Source of the DNA: a virus
DNA length: 64,000 nt
Strand: one strand, 5' to 3'
Virus record (IMG/VR): IMGVR_UViG_3300028025_003852
Span: 8,815-72,814 of that record
Positions 3,232 to 54,714 of this stretch are shown piece by piece. The stretch's first letter is position 1. Each line of letters begins with the position of its first letter. The notes beneath the pieces were generated by a model. The model had not been told where the DNA came from, ran no database searches, and was given only the letters and a program-made list of their open reading frames with translations. The position numbers and the translations under genes were made by a program.

Positions 3232-3947
3232 TATCCAAACGACACTAGCTGACCAAAGACAGCGTATGCCCCTCCATTATTCAAAATACTAAAGCTGACA
3301 ATGTCCTTCTTGTTAGCATTTCCAGGTGGGACGCTACCTCCCTGCCAGTTAATTGTTTGTGCTACACCAGCAATCTGAACAGCGGTAGGAATTCTTGCAG
3401 TACCACCCTGATTTAGAATTAGTGTTACCGTGGTTGCTGAACCTGCATCAAGTGCTAGGTTTGTAAGATTGACCGTAAAGTTTGCTGAAAGATTTGTGTG
3501 ATTAAAAATATGCCCTAAAGAACAGTTATGCACAACCACACCAGTAGCTCCAGTTACGCTTGTAAATGTTTCTGAAACTTTTTTAATTTTGAGAATGCTT
3601 GGATCTATCCAGGTTACTGCATAATCTGTTGGAGACTCTTTCCCTAAGTAGAAACCAGTGGTTCCTCCTGCTGGAACACCACTTCCGCTTGCTGCAACCA
3701 ATTGCCATACGGCTGATCCAACTTGTGGAATTTGTCCAACTGTACCAGTTGCATTACGATACCATGTTGAACCATTGTATGTAACAACATTACCAATTGG
3801 ATATGTGGCTGAATTATTATAAGGACCAGAAAAAGACCAGAGTGCATTTTGTCCTGCTGGTCCTGTTGGTCCTTGAACTCCTTGTGGTCCTGCTGCACCT
3901 GTTTGTCCAGCGGAACCTGGGAATGGAACAATTTTAATTGTTGGCAT
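3231..3947 (-). CDS. Collagen-repeat tail fibre protein with carbohydrate-binding-like module
   Basis: G-X-Y repeats (GQTGAAGPQGVQGPTGPAGQ) then YNNSATYPIGNVVTYNGSTW; start chosen at MPTIK, coupled to upstream stop. Confidence 0.7.
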   Translation of the reverse strand: MPTIKIVPFPGSAGQTGAAGPQGVQGPTGPAGQNALWSFSGPYNNSATYPIGNVVTYNGSTWYRNATGTVGQIPQVGSAVWQLVAASGSGVPAGGTTGFYLGKESPTDYAVTWIDPSILKIKKVSETFTSVTGATGVVVHNCSLGHIFNHTNLSANFTVNLTNLALDAGSATTVTLILNQGGTARIPTAVQIAGVAQTINWQGGSVPPGNANKKDIVSFSILNNGGAYAVFGQLVSFG

Positions 3948-4324
3948 TATAAACTTCCTCCTGTTACGTCTCCGATAACAGTGATTGTACCAATGACAGG
4001 TGTCCAAACAGTATCATCAATAGTTACCTGGAGATCAAAAGCTAATTCTGCGACTACTGCCTTGTATCCGATTCCCCAAAATTTTGTAATTTCTGCAGGT
4101 GCCGTAATTTCTACGTATCCACTTCCTGCAGATGTTTCAAGTTCGTCTAGAACATCTCCCTTAAAATCATATGCGTATGAAGCATATTCCCAAGTTGATG
4201 TAGAATATTTTGTTACTTCGTCATCCTGTAAAAACTCTACACGAAGTACAGCGGTGTCGCCTCGAACGACAGTCCATTTCATGTTATATGGATTTGCACC
4301 AAAAATATCAGCGACGGTAGTCAT
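3947..4324 (-). CDS. Putative tail/baseplate-associated protein; paralogue of 530-940
   Basis: WTVVRGD motif; TATAAT just upstream of MTTVAD start. Confidence 0.6.
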   Translation of the reverse strand: MTTVADIFGANPYNMKWTVVRGDTAVLRVEFLQDDEVTKYSTSTWEYASYAYDFKGDVLDELETSAGSGYVEITAPAEITKFWGIGYKAVVAELAFDLQVTIDDTVWTPVIGTITVIGDVTGGSL

Positions 4325-4351
4325 AGTAATTCTATTATACACCACTAATAG

Positions 4352-4401
4352 GACTGGCACCCGAAAATAGTGGGTATGAGAGACGTTCGAGTGCCAGCCA
4401 T
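4352..4401 (-). ncRNA. Candidate hairpin antisense sRNA
   Basis: TGT-TATAAT promoter at 4414-4406; 14-bp stem with 20-nt loop complementary to the start region of ORF 53949-54155. Confidence 0.5.
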
Positions 4402-4415
4402 AATTATTATAACAT

Positions 4416-4506
4416 ATTGTAACAATTTGATAACAAAAAAATAAAAATCATTGATATATCAACACTGTTATATAATCGTTACAACATTGTTATAGAAACG
4501 TTACCA
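4416..4506. promoter_or_regulatory. Array of GTTAC/GTAAC-type half-sites at 11-bp spacing (OmpR-family MtrA/GlnR-like boxes)
   Basis: GTAAC-N6-ATAAC at 4419; GTTAC-N6-GTTAT-N6-GTTAC at 4478. Confidence 0.4.
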
Positions 4507-4619
4507 AATACATGCTCGGGGTATGCTATGGTATATAAAGATAATAGATACTAAGAAAACTCTCTCTTAGAGATAGCTTCTCAATAAAAGAAAAACAATC
4601 CGAAGGATTAAGGATAAGT

Positions 4620-4937
4620 CTATTCTTTATTAGACTTATTGTTAGATACATAGCTTATAAACATTTCTGTAAGCCTATCTATTTTTCCATCTATCTTTTC
4701 GTGGAACTGTTCTCCACGTTCATTCTGCTCTTTTAGATGAATCACATCTGTTTCAAGTCTAGTAACCTGATCCTTTATTGATGATCCACCATTTGGCTTA
4801 AGTTCATGTCTGATCTCTTCAAACTGTTCTTTGGCAAATGCCTTAATGTAGAATCTAAGAATAGCGAATAGAATTCCAGCTACTGCTGAAACGCCAATTA
4901 TGATTGCTATAATAGCTTGCCACTCTTCAATTGTCAT
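4620..4937 (-). CDS. Membrane protein with coiled coil (holin-like)
   Basis: N-terminal TM helix, PNGGSSIKDQVTRLE motif common in actinophage lysis-region proteins. Confidence 0.6.
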   Translation of the reverse strand: MTIEEWQAIIAIIIGVSAVAGILFAILRFYIKAFAKEQFEEIRHELKPNGGSSIKDQVTRLETDVIHLKEQNERGEQFHEKIDGKIDRLTEMFISYVSNNKSNKE

Positions 4938-5218
4938 GATATATTAATTATATCCTGAGTTTTTAATAAAATTACTACATGTTGTATGAAACATTCCCTG
5001 GATACACAATATACTTAATTAATCGCTCTTAAATCGCGGCGTAAAATTCGGCGGCGTATAGAGATACCAAACACATACCAAATACCACTATCTAAATATG
5101 TGTGATATCCTGGATATAACCCAGTCAAGTGCTTTCGGAAACCAGCGTAGTTGGTTCTTTAAACCAGCACAAATTTTCTCCTTATGCAGATAGGGAGATT
5201 TTTTGTTATACTATATAT

Positions 5219-6946: not shown

Positions 6947-7000
6947 CGGCGTGTCGGCTTGACATACCCTGGCAATCGGGGGCCGGGCGATCCGGCCGCC

Positions 7001-8737: not shown

Positions 8738-8905
8738 ATGAAGAAAAAGACCAAGCACAAAGCAACAGAAAACAAAGCCTACATCGAGGCTATGCGTGAG
8801 TTGCGTCGCTCCAATGCGGCTACTGCCCATGACAACCGACCTAACCGTCAACGCACTCGTGGTGCAGTCAAGGCTCATGCTATTGGAGAATACAAGGCTC
8901 TGTAA
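8738..8905 (+). CDS. Small basic protein (ELRRSNAA motif), leaderless, stop inside tRNA-Asp
   Basis: TAAGAT-N6-ATG; 55 aa. Confidence 0.6.
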   Translation: MKKKTKHKATENKAYIEAMRELRRSNAATAHDNRPNRQRTRGAVKAHAIGEYKAL

Positions 8906-11527: not shown

Positions 11528-11702
11528 CGGAGGGCAGGGCCGGGTGATCCGGCCGCCCACCCCCAATGTAACAATTAGGTTACGATAGGCTGAAAATAGC
11601 CCCTAGGACTTGATATTGTGTGTGTTTTCTGTCATACTTGATATATCAGCAAGACCGCTGGTAATTAGGTTGGCTGGCTCGCCAACAGAAATGAGGAAGC
11701 AA

Positions 11703-13685: not shown

Positions 13686-13832
13686 TTCTCATACCCAGGG
13701 GGGCCGGGCCGATCCGGCCGCCATTGTAACAATTGGGTTACGAACACCTAAAAATACCACCTAGGACTTGTAATTATCTTGTATCTGTGTCATACTGATA
13801 TAAGTAAACAAACCTCTAACGAAAGGCAACAT

Positions 13833-18027: not shown

Positions 18028-18475
18028 CTTAGCATATTGGGACAAAAAAGGATTAAGAACGACCTATTTTTTACGCCTGAAAGTCTATTGTATTATCACT
18101 AGGATTGGTTTTATATATAGGTATTATGATGGCTTTGTTTTATACCCCGAAAAATTACTGAGTTACTGATCCATGTGCCCTAGGCTTATAAGCATTGATA
18201 CTTCTATAACATTTAGCATGTACTGTCATATCTGTTCTATACTTAGGCTTACGATGCTTGCGTCTATAGGTTTTAGTCTTATCGTCTTTGTGTATTAGTT
18301 GATTGCAATACCAGCACATTTATTGCTCTTTTTCTCGAAGATCAGCCAATGCTCTCTCATACCCAATCTTCATTGCCACTACTTCTTCCCTATATGGATC
18401 ACGACCAGAGTTACTTTGAGTAAATATCTTTAGTGACTCATATGCTTTTTCCATTTGTTTTGTGCTTGGTGTCAT

Positions 18476-18691
18476 TTATAGTTCCTTGATTTGTTTCAAC
18501 AATACCGCCACTTGTCGTGGCGTAAGATTACCAATCACATCATCTGTAACTGGAGACTCATAATAGATACGATCATTCTGTAGCACAGCTAATTCGTATA
18601 GTCCCTGGTCGTATCCAATGCTTGCAGTGTTACGAATAACTGAAGCACCGTAACCATTCTCAAAGTACCATCTACGTTTGTAGTCTTTCAT
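18476..18691 (-). CDS. Conserved small phage protein (FENGYGASVI family)
   Basis: NGYGASVI...GLYELAVL...DDVIGNLT motif. Confidence 0.7.
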   Translation of the reverse strand: MKDYKRRWYFENGYGASVIRNTASIGYDQGLYELAVLQNDRIYYESPVTDDVIGNLTPRQVAVLLKQIKEL

Positions 18692-18791
18692 TTTCCTATA
18701 ATTCCTAACAGTTCGTTTATTCTTTTAATCTCTGCATCACGAGCTTCAATTCTTTCAAGTTCTGCAATCATAGCTTCACATGCATCACACA

Positions 18792-18995
18792 TTAGTCCCA
18801 GCCCTTGTATGTGCTTGTGGTTTGATTGTTTTGGTTGAAGTCAACCCCATTAACAAGATCAATAACCTCTGTTGGAGAATAGTCCTTGTGTGGATACTTC
18901 TTCATCATCTCTATGACTATAAAAATGATACGTTTGCGTTCCCACAAAATACCAGCCTCGTGTCCTTCAGGATATTCGTCTTTAAACTCACTCAT
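18792..18995 (-). CDS. Hypothetical protein
   Basis: 67 aa with GGAG RBS. Confidence 0.5.
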   Translation of the reverse strand: MSEFKDEYPEGHEAGILWERKRIIFIVIEMMKKYPHKDYSPTEVIDLVNGVDFNQNNQTTSTYKGWD

Positions 18996-36262: not shown

Positions 36263-36433
36263 TTAAATCAGAATTTTAAATACAGGGCAACATGGATCTC
36301 CGCCCTCTTCCCAATCCTGCATCTCATCATCTGTCATATATGGATCACCGTCATGAGTATGACAAAATCCTTCGCTAATCCATCCCTGGTCAATACCAAT
36401 TTGTGCCCAGTCGTTGAATTCCATTTTAGCCAT
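36263..36433 (-). CDS. Small conserved phage protein (C.THDG...EEGGDPC)
   Basis: GAAAGG RBS; motif. Confidence 0.6.
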   Translation of the reverse strand: MAKMEFNDWAQIGIDQGWISEGFCHTHDGDPYMTDDEMQDWEEGGDPCCPVFKILI

Positions 36434-36950
36434 TCTTATACCTTTCAAGTATTTCTTTTGCCCAGTTTACCAGATCTTCAACTCTTTGTCCAGATGGCTG
36501 GCTAGAAACCCATAGCTCAAGGTTTTCTATTCTATTGTCATTGCGAACACCATTGATATGATGAACATTTTCTCCTGGAAACAGTGCTCTTCCTAAATAT
36601 TCTTCCATAATAAATCTGTGTTGAGACTGCATTTCGTATTTTCCATTTACTCTGCGAGTTCTACGAATATACCCAGACTCGTGCTTAAACCAGTCGTTCC
36701 ACTCCCCTGGACGCTGATATTTAATTGGCTGAAGCTTACCAAACTTTTTCATTTGATAGTTGTGTCCAGAACAAAGATTGTTTCCTTTATGTGGTTTGTG
36801 GCAACCTTCAAAGGTACATGTATCCAGTCTTGCACCTTCTCTAGGACGCAATTTGCGAAGGTTTTCTCCACGAAGACTCATTTTATAATGAGATTGGCAA
36901 AGATCCTTTGCGTAAGGCTTTCTGATACATTCACTAAAAGAGCACTTCAT
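36426..36950 (-). CDS. HNH homing endonuclease with Cys/His repeats
   Basis: QHRFIME..LGR.L...ENVHHINGVRNDNRIENLELW. Confidence 0.9.
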   Translation of the reverse strand: MKCSFSECIRKPYAKDLCQSHYKMSLRGENLRKLRPREGARLDTCTFEGCHKPHKGNNLCSGHNYQMKKFGKLQPIKYQRPGEWNDWFKHESGYIRRTRRVNGKYEMQSQHRFIMEEYLGRALFPGENVHHINGVRNDNRIENLELWVSSQPSGQRVEDLVNWAKEILERYKNG

Positions 36951-36983
36951 TTATTTAGTATAGCATATTTTCTATGTTATTGG

Positions 36984-40045
<3,062 letters not shown>

Positions 40046-40059
<14 letters not shown>

Positions 40060-40432
40060 TAAAAATCTCCAACCTTTCACGAATTGTTTCTACATCTTCT
40101 GGTGTTCCAAATATTTCTATCATGCCAAGAATTGGAACATCTGTTTTCTTAGCAATCAGTTTGGCAGCCTTGCAGTAGTCTTTGCCAAAATTAGTATTGC
40201 CAAATCCAACGACTGCCTTTAGCAATTCTCTATTTGTTTTAATATTTAGAAAGGTTGCTACTGGTCTTGGGATGGCATAATCATTTTTACCACCGCCATA
40301 GGTTGGTACAAAAAGAACGTACTCACGAGTAGCAAATGGAAGCTCCTCAACTGAGTACGATCTATCATACCCTAACTTTTCAACAAAACGTTTGGTGTTG
40401 CCAGAACGGTTTGAGAAGTATACTATATCCAT
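40046..40432 (-). CDS. nrdI: NrdI flavodoxin
   Basis: [26 protein letters not shown]. Confidence 0.95.
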
Positions 40433-52427: not shown

Positions 52428-53648
52428 CTAGTTATCTTCAAAGTCTTTGTACTTATATGTACCCTTGTCAAAATCAGCCTGCACCATGAATTCACCCATA
52501 AAACCATTACGATTCTTACGAAAAACACACTCTATAATGTCGGAGTTTGTACCACGACCAAGAGCCATAACCCAGTCAGCATCGTATGCAATCTGTCGTG
52601 ACCAAGCGGTCTGACCAAGTGTTGGAACAGTGTCTAGCTTAGTTACATCATCTGGTGTTGCTGATGAGATAGCAATAATGGGAACCTCTTCTGAAATAGC
52701 CATAAGCTTTAGTTCACGAGAAAGGTTTTTCATTCGAACAGTTTCGTTGTCTGACTTTTGGTTTGGCGACATAAGCTGCAAATAGTCTACAATAACAAAG
52801 TCTGGTTTGTACTGATCTATCTTACCACGCAATACTGAGGGCGTAATCTCTCCACCAGAATCATTTGAAATAATGTGAAACTCTGGCTTTCCTGCAAGAT
52901 TTTTCGTGTGCCAAGATTTTAGCATATCAAGCTCTACCTGACCAGCAGAAAGCTTTCTGTGTGACCAAAGGCCTTCCCCCATAATTGTAAAGACACGATT
53001 ACGAACCTCTGTCTCACTCATCTCAAGGCTAACAACCATTGGAGACTTGCCCTGCTTCCATGCCTGTACCGCAAAATAAAGCGATAGCCATGACTTTCCA
53101 ATACCTGGATAAGCAAGGAATACTCCAAGCTGTCCTGGCGTAATTCCAGCAGGAAGGTAGTTGTCGAAACCCGGAAGACCAGTCTTGATTCCTGTGAACC
53201 CTAGAGCAGCCTGCTCTTGAACATTTGTATAGTATGCAATCGCATCATCAATATCTGTAACATCAATATCACGGATTGCAGAAGTGTTCTTCTTTAGTTC
53301 TGATGTCATTGTAATCAATGACTCAAGTACCTCTACACCCTTACCACCTTGAATATCTGTAGCTGCTGTGCGAACAATGTCCTTTAGACTATCATTAAGG
53401 TACTCTGCCTGTAGTTCTTCTAGGTGGTGCTTTGTTGCCCCTACCCCAGAAACTGGCTCAAAGTCACGGAACTTCTCAACAACTAGTGCTGTTGGTGGAA
53501 CCGTGCCATTATGATCAAAGTAGTTACGAACAAACTGCCAGATATCATTATGAGTACGTAGCATGTTGTCTACGTTTGCCTGAAGCAAAACGTGGACCTG
53601 CTTATCCTCTAACACAGCAGAGATAAGCTTTGCCTCTGAATTACTCAT
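52428..53648 (-). CDS. dnaB: DnaB-like replicative helicase
   Basis: AYPGIGKS, SLEMS, IVDYLQLM, DADWV, KNRNG. Confidence 0.92.
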   Translation of the reverse strand: MSNSEAKLISAVLEDKQVHVLLQANVDNMLRTHNDIWQFVRNYFDHNGTVPPTALVVEKFRDFEPVSGVGATKHHLEELQAEYLNDSLKDIVRTAATDIQGGKGVEVLESLITMTSELKKNTSAIRDIDVTDIDDAIAYYTNVQEQAALGFTGIKTGLPGFDNYLPAGITPGQLGVFLAYPGIGKSWLSLYFAVQAWKQGKSPMVVSLEMSETEVRNRVFTIMGEGLWSHRKLSAGQVELDMLKSWHTKNLAGKPEFHIISNDSGGEITPSVLRGKIDQYKPDFVIVDYLQLMSPNQKSDNETVRMKNLSRELKLMAISEEVPIIAISSATPDDVTKLDTVPTLGQTAWSRQIAYDADWVMALGRGTNSDIIECVFRKNRNGFMGEFMVQADFDKGTYKYKDFEDN

Positions 53649-53949
53649 TTAACCATTCCTTTGCTCTAGCCCTACGCTCTTGTCGTTCTTTCTCGTCTAC
53701 CTTTTGTTGCCGAACAGCAGAAATAATACTGTCAGCATAGTTTGCAAAATACTTCCAACTTGGCGATGGAGCAACATCAAAGTAATACTCCAACAGGTCG
53801 TAGCATTGTGGCAAGCCGTATGATTCAATTAATGCATCTGCTGCCCATTGCTCAACATTCAAATTCAACAATGGCTTTTTCTCATGCTTTATAACATAAA
53901 GCTTGGAATACCTACTGAGCAAAGCCATACGATCTTTGCGTTCAGCCAT
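53641..53949 (-). CDS. Putative helicase loader/accessory protein
   Basis: Coupled directly upstream of dnaB; function inferred from position. Confidence 0.45.
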   Translation of the reverse strand: MAERKDRMALLSRYSKLYVIKHEKKPLLNLNVEQWAADALIESYGLPQCYDLLEYYFDVAPSPSWKYFANYADSIISAVRQQKVDEKERQERRARAKEWLNE

Positions 53950-54155
53950 TACTCTTTAATTTCAGACTTAGCTTCGTTAATCTTTTCAACAAGCTTTGAT
54001 TCAACGAATGCGTACACTCGCTCAAATGCTTCTGTGATGTTCTCTCCATCACGACGTGAGTCAACTACACCAAGATCGATTCGTAGTGACTGGAAGTTGC
54101 CAAGGTTAAGTGTGTAACCCAATGTAACATTTACCTTTGTTTCTTCGTTATTCAT
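53949..54155 (-). CDS. Small conserved protein (TLNLGNFQSLRID)
   Basis: Heads the coupled run into dnaB. Confidence 0.65.
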   Translation of the reverse strand: MNNEETKVNVTLGYTLNLGNFQSLRIDLGVVDSRRDGENITEAFERVYAFVESKLVEKINEAKSEIKE

Positions 54156-54177
54156 CTCTCATACCCCTTTCGAAGGC

Positions 54178-54714
54178 TTAAATACTTTCTGACCAAACAG
54201 GAATAAACCTGCCGTCTTCTGTTCTCGTATATGTCAGTATACCACTGCCTAAACGGCGTGTCAACTCTTGTCTAGTAGGAGTTATATCGTTTGTGATAAG
54301 CTTATCCTTTCTTGGTCTTCCCATGTGATAGGTAGAAAGTATATCACGAATTTCGTAAACCTGCGATTCTGAATAGTAGCACCTTATCTGCCACCCTCTT
54401 TCTCCGCCCTTGGATGCCCCCCTAGGCTCTGGAATGATCCCACGCTTCATGAGACTAGGCATATATTTTCTATGACGATTTACTAAGATAGCTACTTCTC
54501 CAACAGTATACGCTCGTTCTCTATTCTTCTTAAAGTCTCCTACTAGACAACTTTCAAGTTGATCCTTGTTCATATTGTAGACAGACATAATGCCGTTAGA
54601 TTTTCCTAAATGATGTACCCTGACCAAATCGCCATTAAGAAACCATACCTTTTTGCTACCAGGTATTACTGGTGCAGAGTTATAGGCCTGTCTGTCAAAT
54701 CCTGGGGATGGCAT
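54178..54714 (-). CDS. MerR-like HTH DNA-binding protein
   Basis: YTVGEVAILVNRH...GIIPEP...RCYYSE. Confidence 0.6.
   Translation of the reverse strand: MPSPGFDRQAYNSAPVIPGSKKVWFLNGDLVRVHHLGKSNGIMSVYNMNKDQLESCLVGDFKKNRERAYTVGEVAILVNRHRKYMPSLMKRGIIPEPRGASKGGERGWQIRCYYSESQVYEIRDILSTYHMGRPRKDKLITNDITPTRQELTRRLGSGILTYTRTEDGRFIPVWSESI

Follow-up and report, generated by a model that had tools for sequence, protein, structure and literature searches.

A conserved hairpin RNA of uncultured phages predicted to pair with the start region of a replication operon 50 kb away

To our knowledge, a target has been defined for few of the small RNAs that phages encode. In phages P1 and P7, the c4 antisense RNA is reportedly excised from the very operon transcript it controls and serves lysogenic immunity; bases in its loop are said to pair with the ribosome-binding region of a small ORF that lies upstream and to which the downstream genes are coupled. 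Loop-driven antisense RNAs are also found on plasmids (CopA, Sok and RNA-OUT); these are cis-encoded and fully complementary to their targets, and their YUNR U-turn loops speed pairing. As set out in part of one review, the phage small RNAs described include host-directed molecules (PreS and DicF) and antisense RNAs of temperate phages (sar, OOP and aQ) (PMC12197685). According to the same part of that source, sar of P22 and OOP of lambda are ∼69–77 nt long, pair with phage mRNA and lower a regulatory protein; OOP is cis-encoded, overlapping its target gene with full complementarity, whilst sar, which pairs with ant mRNA, is classed as trans (PMC12197685). PreS (lambda) and DicF (prophage Qin) are described in excerpts of two sources as trans-acting RNAs that use a short seed on the host mRNAs dnaN and ftsZ (PMC12197685; 10.1101/2024.10.31.621285), and DicF, at 53 nt, as having a secondary structure that resembles a Rho-independent terminator (PMC12197685).

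Here we describe a locus within a 64 000-nt stretch of viral DNA (hereafter the window; bases 8815–72814 of an IMG/VR viral record with an estimated completeness of 67 %) that, from comparison of related sequences, we consider likely to specify a trans-acting antisense RNA of ∼55 nt that keeps ribosomes from binding to the replication operon. By analogy, the closest system in mode of action would be the c4 RNA of phages P1 and P7, as both are phage-encoded, act or are predicted to act in trans on a phage mRNA, direct a loop against the ribosome-binding region of a small ORF and exert control through coupling. Unlike c4, however, the hairpin RNA has its own predicted promoter and terminator 50 kb from its target, this target is the replication operon, and there is no Rfam match. 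It resembles sar and OOP in being a short phage RNA predicted to pair with a phage mRNA and lower expression, but it is encoded 50 kb away and the seed shared with its target is only 6–12 nt; a cis-encoded, OOP-type antisense RNA does not fit, with the target 50 kb off, on the same strand and matched contiguously over 6–12 nt. With PreS and DicF it would share trans action through a short seed (and, with DicF, approximate size), whereas its conserved partner is the phage's own replication operon rather than host mRNAs. As in CopA, Sok and RNA-OUT, a long stem presents the pairing loop and, at the level of sequence, a YUNR-type tetranucleotide precedes the core in most loops; in contrast to these, the hairpin RNA is trans-encoded and its complementarity is partial. 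It would belong to no described family, but to a known kind, that of trans-encoded base-pairing small RNAs. A search of Rfam 15 over the window brought only five tRNAs to the gathering score and no RNA family for the hairpin, and at 4250–4550 the best match reached 18 bits against a cut-off of 70. The literature search returned nothing on this RNA among the matches listed, and the matches listed for 11-nt loop and target strings were unrelated.

The small-RNA unit consists of the following features.

4406–4433, minus strand: small-RNA promoter P1 (TTATCA at 4433–4428, 16-nt spacer, TG at 4414–4413, TATAAT at 4411–4406)
4352–4399, minus strand: small-RNA hairpin (5′ arm 4399–4386, loop 4385–4366, 3′ arm 4365–4352)
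4340–4351, minus strand: 3′ tail of the hairpin, CUAUUAGUGGUG, weakly U-rich in the window and a U-run in most relatives
4322–4339, minus strand: second −10 (TATAAT, 4339–4334) and ATG (4324–4322) of a 125-aa gene, forming the downstream border of the small-RNA unit

An earlier note on this DNA had described the promoter, a 14-bp stem and a 14-nt pairing of the loop with positions 54166–54153, and on rereading the sequence we found this description correct in every detail. Promoter P1 (TTATCA-16-TGtTATAAT) is of sigma-70 type and scored 10/12 plus the TG extension in a consensus scan. Seven bases past its TATAAT the stem begins, with two G·U pairs among its 14 bp, enclosing a loop that in the window is 20 nt long (CGUCUCUCAUACCCACUAUU, 4385–4366, minus strand). 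The fold of 4330–4405 (minus strand) has an energy of −26.2 kcal/mol (z = −4.11), which 0/200 shuffles equalled. The first 9 nt past the stem contain four Ts in the window, compared with at least five in 30/33 hairpin loci, and because of this weak U-run termination at the window hairpin is doubtful. The terminator scan gave no call on the hairpin, and a plain intrinsic terminator does not fit, as the loop is 20 nt (15–24 nt in relatives) with an invariant core, as opposed to the 3–8 unconserved nucleotides expected.

The hairpin is located between a 105-aa membrane-protein gene, which ends in its own short hairpin and T-run (judged by eye), and tail-fibre-like genes, one collagen-like and one lectin-like. 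The earlier assignment of the RNA to the structural region thus holds for its position, but not as a guide to timing. Downstream, the 125-aa gene has its TATAAT 9 nt ahead of the ATG and lacks a Shine–Dalgarno sequence; in relatives this spacing is 6 nt in 18 cases, 7 in 1, 9 in 10 and 10 in 1. The 105-aa gene likewise has a TATAAT 9 nt ahead of its ATG (4934–4952, minus strand) and no Shine–Dalgarno sequence, an arrangement that suggests leaderless mRNAs for both genes. Separately, TTGTAACAATT-type repeats occur at 4417–4427, 4474–4484, 11566–11576 and 13724–13734, around the −35 of P1 and before two plus-strand promoters; they look like operators, and the seven matches found against 3.13 expected are, taken alone, not significant.

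In order to establish whether the hairpin is conserved we turned to viral contigs, where relatives of the 125-aa neighbour share the order extended −10, hairpin, T-run, second −10 and ATG. A pattern scan for further hairpins, which required ATACCCAC and both −10 boxes, gave 119 matches that were examined; 36 passed a loose fold filter and 17 distinct loci passed a stricter one (energy < −15 kcal/mol) and entered the alignment. Within this alignment (A1, 29 distinct hairpins) we observed changes on both sides in 14/14 stem pairs. Paired cells made up 95.1 %, compared with 34.7–46.3 % when the partner was slid by 1–3 columns, and the covariation score of 0.820 (0.420 ± 0.025 in shuffles) was reached by 0/500 of these. 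Moreover, there were 54 G·U cells against 4 A·C cells, and a covariance model, R1, scored the window locus at 63.1 bits on the minus strand and 18.1 bits on the plus strand; both observations indicate that the structure belongs to an RNA read from P1. By these comparative measures, the hairpin is a conserved RNA structure. In a scan with R1 it was single-copy in the window.

As ATACCCAC and both −10 boxes were preconditions of the pattern scan, a further sample was taken on protein grounds only, comprising 80 loci picked solely by homology to the 125-aa neighbour (protein alignment). An R1 match of 36.8–75.1 bits was present in 72 of these, just upstream of the 125-aa gene and on its strand, and UACCCAC occurred in all loops among the R1 matches listed from these 72. 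The remaining eight comprised three loci cut off upstream, two with a variant hairpin (L354 and L356; loop CUCUCUACCCACCCCCCAC, behind a TGTTAGAAT promoter) and three that have lost the hairpin whilst keeping both promoters (L313, L319 and L357). A TGnTAYMMT element ends no more than 12 nt from the stem in 31/33 hairpin loci; the extended −10 was imposed by the search pattern for 17 of the 33 and not for the others, and it was present in all 12 distinct protein-neighbour loci and four model-found loci, for which no promoter had been required. Across relatives the loop varies from 15 to 24 nt around a conserved core with the consensus GUCUCUCAUACCCAC, and in most loops a YUNR-type tetranucleotide (CUCA, UUCA, CUUA or CUCG) directly precedes AUACCC or UACCC. 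In total, the hairpin RNA was found on at least 100 metagenomic phage contigs, and is thus common to many uncultured phages of fresh water. In low-GC relatives (L008–L027, L225 and L235) TTATCCACA, which we take to be the DnaA-box consensus, lies 25–45 nt upstream of the small-RNA −10, with two copies upstream of P1 in L225; the window does not carry it.

We consider it very improbable that the element acts as DNA, signalling replication or packaging through a cruciform or a hairpin in single-stranded DNA, or that it is simply the terminator of the upstream gene. The long and perfect stem, together with TTATCCACA upstream of P1 in some relatives, would agree with a DNA element, but the excess of G·U over A·C cells and the strong strand difference under R1 argue against one, whilst loops of 15–24 nt far exceed those of terminators and the upstream gene appears, by eye, to have a terminator-like hairpin of its own.

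The predicted target of the RNA lies within the following features.

54236–54264, minus strand: target-operon promoter (TTGACA-17-TGgTATACT), within the 3′ end of a 189-aa gene
54153–54166, minus strand: predicted target site GGGUAUGAGAGAUG, ribosome-binding region and AUG of the 68-aa gene
53949–54155, minus strand: 68-aa gene (phrog_5189), first gene of the replication operon
53641–53949, minus strand: 102-aa gene, overlapping the 68-aa gene by stop and start codons
52428–53648, minus strand: DnaB-like helicase, overlapping the 102-aa gene by stop and start codons

As the earlier note had it, the site covers the ribosome-binding region and ATG of the ORF heading a coupled run of 68-aa, 102-aa and DnaB genes with overlapping stop and start codons: the stop of the 68-aa gene and the start of the 102-aa gene share TAATG, and the stop of the latter overlaps the DnaB start as ATGAGTAA. 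About 80 nt upstream of the 68-aa gene is a near-consensus sigma-70 promoter (11/12 plus TG in the scan), which is kept in 68/71 distinct relatives, including at synonymous positions. Judged by this conservation, the 68-aa gene is the head of a true transcription unit. Minus-strand tail genes (tape-measure-like, a minor tail protein and others) run from 64000 down to 54178, and the scan gave no terminator-like site between them and the 68-aa gene. Beyond the latter, the replication module includes DnaB, a primase, SSB, Pol III alpha and a RecA/UvsX-like protein. The leader of the target is predicted to be unstructured (fold z = +1.08), so that the site should be open. The 68-aa protein has a mean identity of 86 % (28 sequences) in phages with a GC content of 0.319 to 0.432, compared with only 46–89 % identity for the 125-aa protein across the same phage records. 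It has no Pfam family; its AlphaFold2 model (pLDDT 80.9) contains two strands and a helix, and a Foldseek search of the PDB with this model found nothing at E ≤ 0.001.

Within the window, the loop pairs with 54166–54153 through 12 Watson–Crick pairs, a G·U and a C–G, 14 nt in all, ending on the ATG at 54155–54153. At −26.6 kcal/mol this is the best trans site in the record. The 12-mer GGGTATGAGAGA is found exactly at 54155–54166 and 18353–18364 (both minus strand) and at 4372–4383 (plus strand), the last being the loop's own antisense; with a single mismatch there is one copy, at 40361–40372 (minus strand), making four matches in total against 0.30 expected. The earlier expectation of 0.008 is right for one given 12-mer but not for the loop, whose 20 nt hold nine 12-mers. 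We therefore turned to controls over the 72.8-kb record, in which at least one complementary site of ≥ 12 nt was found for 321/5000 shuffled loops and 797/5000 random genomic 20-mers; with 6–16 % of control 20-mers having one, a single 12-mer match is not significant. With its own antisense left aside, the real loop has three sites of ≥ 12 nt, a number reached by 2/5000 shuffles and 63/5000 genomic 20-mers, and this count is suggestive of more than chance. The second of these sites, whose presence the earlier note had also recorded, is:

18353–18365, minus strand: second complementary site, 13 nt matching the complement of the loop, inside a 51-aa ORF

This site may be a secondary target or a chance match. 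The 51-aa ORF has no relatives in viral contigs or in seven other whole records. It sits among tightly packed small minus-strand ORFs (71, 51, 54 and 67 aa; 18155–18995) within a plus-strand early region, and the ORFs of this island have no relative in seven related records. The third site (L366, 2836–2847, minus strand) falls in the initial 8.8 kb of the record, outside the window, where a perfect 12-nt complement (AAUAGUGGGUAU) of the 3′ half of the loop immediately precedes a 348-aa glycosyltransferase-like gene that starts with GTG. Eighty relatives of this gene were collected, six of which hold the hairpin on the same locus; the nearest (L370) has the same loop and only five matching bases, and the glycosyltransferase-like start was rejected as a conserved target. 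One other record (G016) has a 9-nt loop match at the ATG of its glycosyltransferase-like gene.

To compare the 68-aa start region with other candidate targets we used eight whole records, in which 35 ORF families are conserved (found in no fewer than five of the other seven records), and scored every start region in a family against the 14-nt loop core that its own record carries. Of the 35 families, the 68-aa start region came top, with a mean of −14.5 kcal/mol and −11.3 in the weakest genome; the next family reached −9.0. For decoys, one column permutation was applied to the cores of all records, and across 400 such permuted cores the mean of the best family was −9.21 ± 0.81 (minimum −12.1), with 0/400 reaching the real value. 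Leaving out the window's own record gave −13.4 against −8.8, and again 0/400 decoys reached it. This ranking and its decoys, together with the operon-head promoter kept in 68/71 relatives, lend support to the earlier proposal of a trans-acting RNA directed at the replication genes.

Both elements were found on at least 30 records, and in 30/30 of them loop and 68-aa start region are complementary. The longest Watson–Crick run is 6 nt in 1 record, 7 in 4, 8 in 15, 9 in 4, 10 in 5 and 12 in 1; the last seven of the 30, examined after the prediction was made, all conform. Own partners pair better than swapped ones (−16.47 versus −15.08 ± 0.35 kcal/mol), with 2/50000 permutations reaching the own-pair mean, although such permutation counts overstate independence since the records are related. 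In several lineages, changes in the target are matched in the loop, as listed here (target, then loop).

GGGUAUGAGAGA with UCUCUCAUACCC (G000)
GGGUAUGAAA with UUUCAUACCC (G026 and G027)
GGGUAUGAAG with CUUCAUACCC (G041)
GGGUAUAA with UUAUACCC (G039 and G040)

A further record (G016) has lost the GGGU part, and its target AUGAGAGAGA pairs with UCUCUCUCAU, in the 5′ part of the loop. The independent divergence of loop and target in relatives, which the earlier note had proposed to look for, was thus not seen. Furthermore, the GGGUAUG motif persists in relatives that use its AUG as start codon, in those where this AUG precedes the start codon out of frame and in those where it closely follows the start; retention in all three placements argues for a role besides initiation.

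These results bear on a second reading, in which the hairpin is a cis-acting element of the tail-fibre cluster: transcripts from P1 would stop unless a phage protein recognizes the loop, or the loop would itself be a protein-binding site, and the 68-aa match would be incidental. A hairpin and U-run between a promoter and late-type genes is what such an element would look like, operator-like repeats are found upstream, and the UACCCAC of all loops listed is stricter than the target requires, its last two bases pairing with the target in some records only. We nevertheless regard this reading as unlikely. The second −10 sits 6–10 nt before the downstream ATG in 30/33 loci, so that the 125-aa gene, having its own −10, would be independent of read-through; moreover, a cis element leaves unexplained a start-region match that none of 400 decoys attains, that recurs in all 30 records and that is partly compensatory.

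We consider it quite unlikely, too, that the hairpin specifies a real small RNA whose main targets lie elsewhere, in host or other phage mRNAs, the 68-aa start being paired by accident or as a side target. A loop core that does not vary suggests a partner that does not vary either, such as a host sequence, and the record holds the two additional sites of ≥ 12 nt described above (18353–18365 and the glycosyltransferase-like start region). Set against this, the latter site is missing in the nearest relative with the same loop, the former lies in an ORF without relatives, and the 68-aa start region alone is complementary in all 30 records. A related observation is that AUACCCAC is conserved beyond the need of target pairing, with its last two bases pairing in some records only; such over-strict conservation hints at a further constraint on the loop, be it a protein, a second target or loop geometry.

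The pairing with the 68-aa start region is not uniformly strong. The shared core is short, at 6–8 nt in 20/30 records, and in one (G042) it is just GAGAGA, at −9.1 kcal/mol. When trans sites were ranked by energy alone across each genome, the 68-aa start region came first in G000 only and fell outside the best 12 in G001 and G004. GGGTAT is absent from 45/71 distinct 68-aa start regions; no hairpin was found on those contigs, all of which are fragments. Start regions of a GGGUGGG(G)UA type occur in L063, L068, L085 and L088. One-sided records numbered 31, with 16 carrying the hairpin without the 68-aa gene and 15 the 68-aa gene without a convincing R1 match, and all are fragments with an estimated completeness of 12–74 %. 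The one complete genome without the hairpin (G058, which holds L313) reads AGGCAUCAA where sister types read GGGUAUGAA. This points to a decayed target site, in a single case whose start region overall has a normal energy against 27 loops (−13.0, inside the −22.1 to −9.7 range of real start regions).

Taken together, we favour the trans-acting antisense RNA, which would probably turn down translation of the replication operon. Host RNA polymerase would start at P1, a few bases before the stem, and transcribe a small-RNA gene spanning 4340–4433 (minus strand); the transcript would be approximately one long hairpin with a U-rich tail, resembling an intrinsic terminator in most relatives. Its loop of 15–24 nt would present GUCUCUCAUACCCAC as a single-stranded seed. 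Base pairing of this seed at the 68-aa gene, 50 kb away, would extend over the start codon and the ribosome-binding region and so hide the Shine–Dalgarno sequence and AUG from the 30S subunit. Through coupling, this would lower the 102-aa protein, DnaB and the downstream replication proteins, to which decay of the untranslated mRNA might possibly add. From the sequence we infer that the RNA is made, that its effect is repression, that this spreads to DnaB and when in infection it would act. Helices between a closed loop and a long mRNA are topologically strained beyond approximately one turn, and for this reason the full 14-nt pairing seen in the window may not form. As both promoters look like host sigma-70 promoters, the RNA might act in late shut-off, or it might damp a dose-sensitive 68-aa protein constantly.

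Should this reading hold, the target of the small RNA would be a specific one within the replication module of the phage itself, and one backed by sequence comparison. The reading would also explain the persistence of GGGUAUG at the start of the almost invariant 68-aa gene, and would thereby mark this gene as a control point of replication. More tentatively, and with distinctly less confidence, we propose that a clade of uncultured freshwater tailed phages of ∼100 kb uses the hairpin RNA as a dedicated brake on replication, that loop and start region have co-evolved over a GC range of 32–43 % with the paired sub-segments differing by lineage, and that the lineage of the window has gained partners (three sites of ≥ 12 nt). 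If true, a brake of this breadth would amount to a self-targeting small-RNA regulon in a phage whose ORFs, as annotated here, include no lysogeny genes.

With respect to its source, blastn of 3900–5000 against the phage collection gave no match and no cultured relative, and the best identity of the DnaB protein was 41 %, to Streptomyces phage proteins. Contigs carrying the 68-aa gene (L447–L455) also turned up in metagenome-assembled genomes that bear the labels of eight unrelated taxa; they are probably misbinned phage contigs, and as such no host can be read from them. Elsewhere in the window, repeated promoter-like units of 45–58 nt (TTTCACTGTC...TGTTAGAAT...GAAAGG) precede small plus-strand genes between 6751 and 15108, and a GC-rich, terminator-like repeat (GGGCCGG..GATCCGGCCGCC) is present in four copies at 6974, 7674, 11531 and 13696. 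On the minus strand (36429–40432) a flavodoxin-like gene and the large and small subunits of ribonucleotide reductase lie in a row, adjoined by an HNH endonuclease gene. Lastly, five tRNA genes (Asp, Asn, Arg, Ile and Gly) are located at 8896, 8973, 20902, 21915 and 36132.
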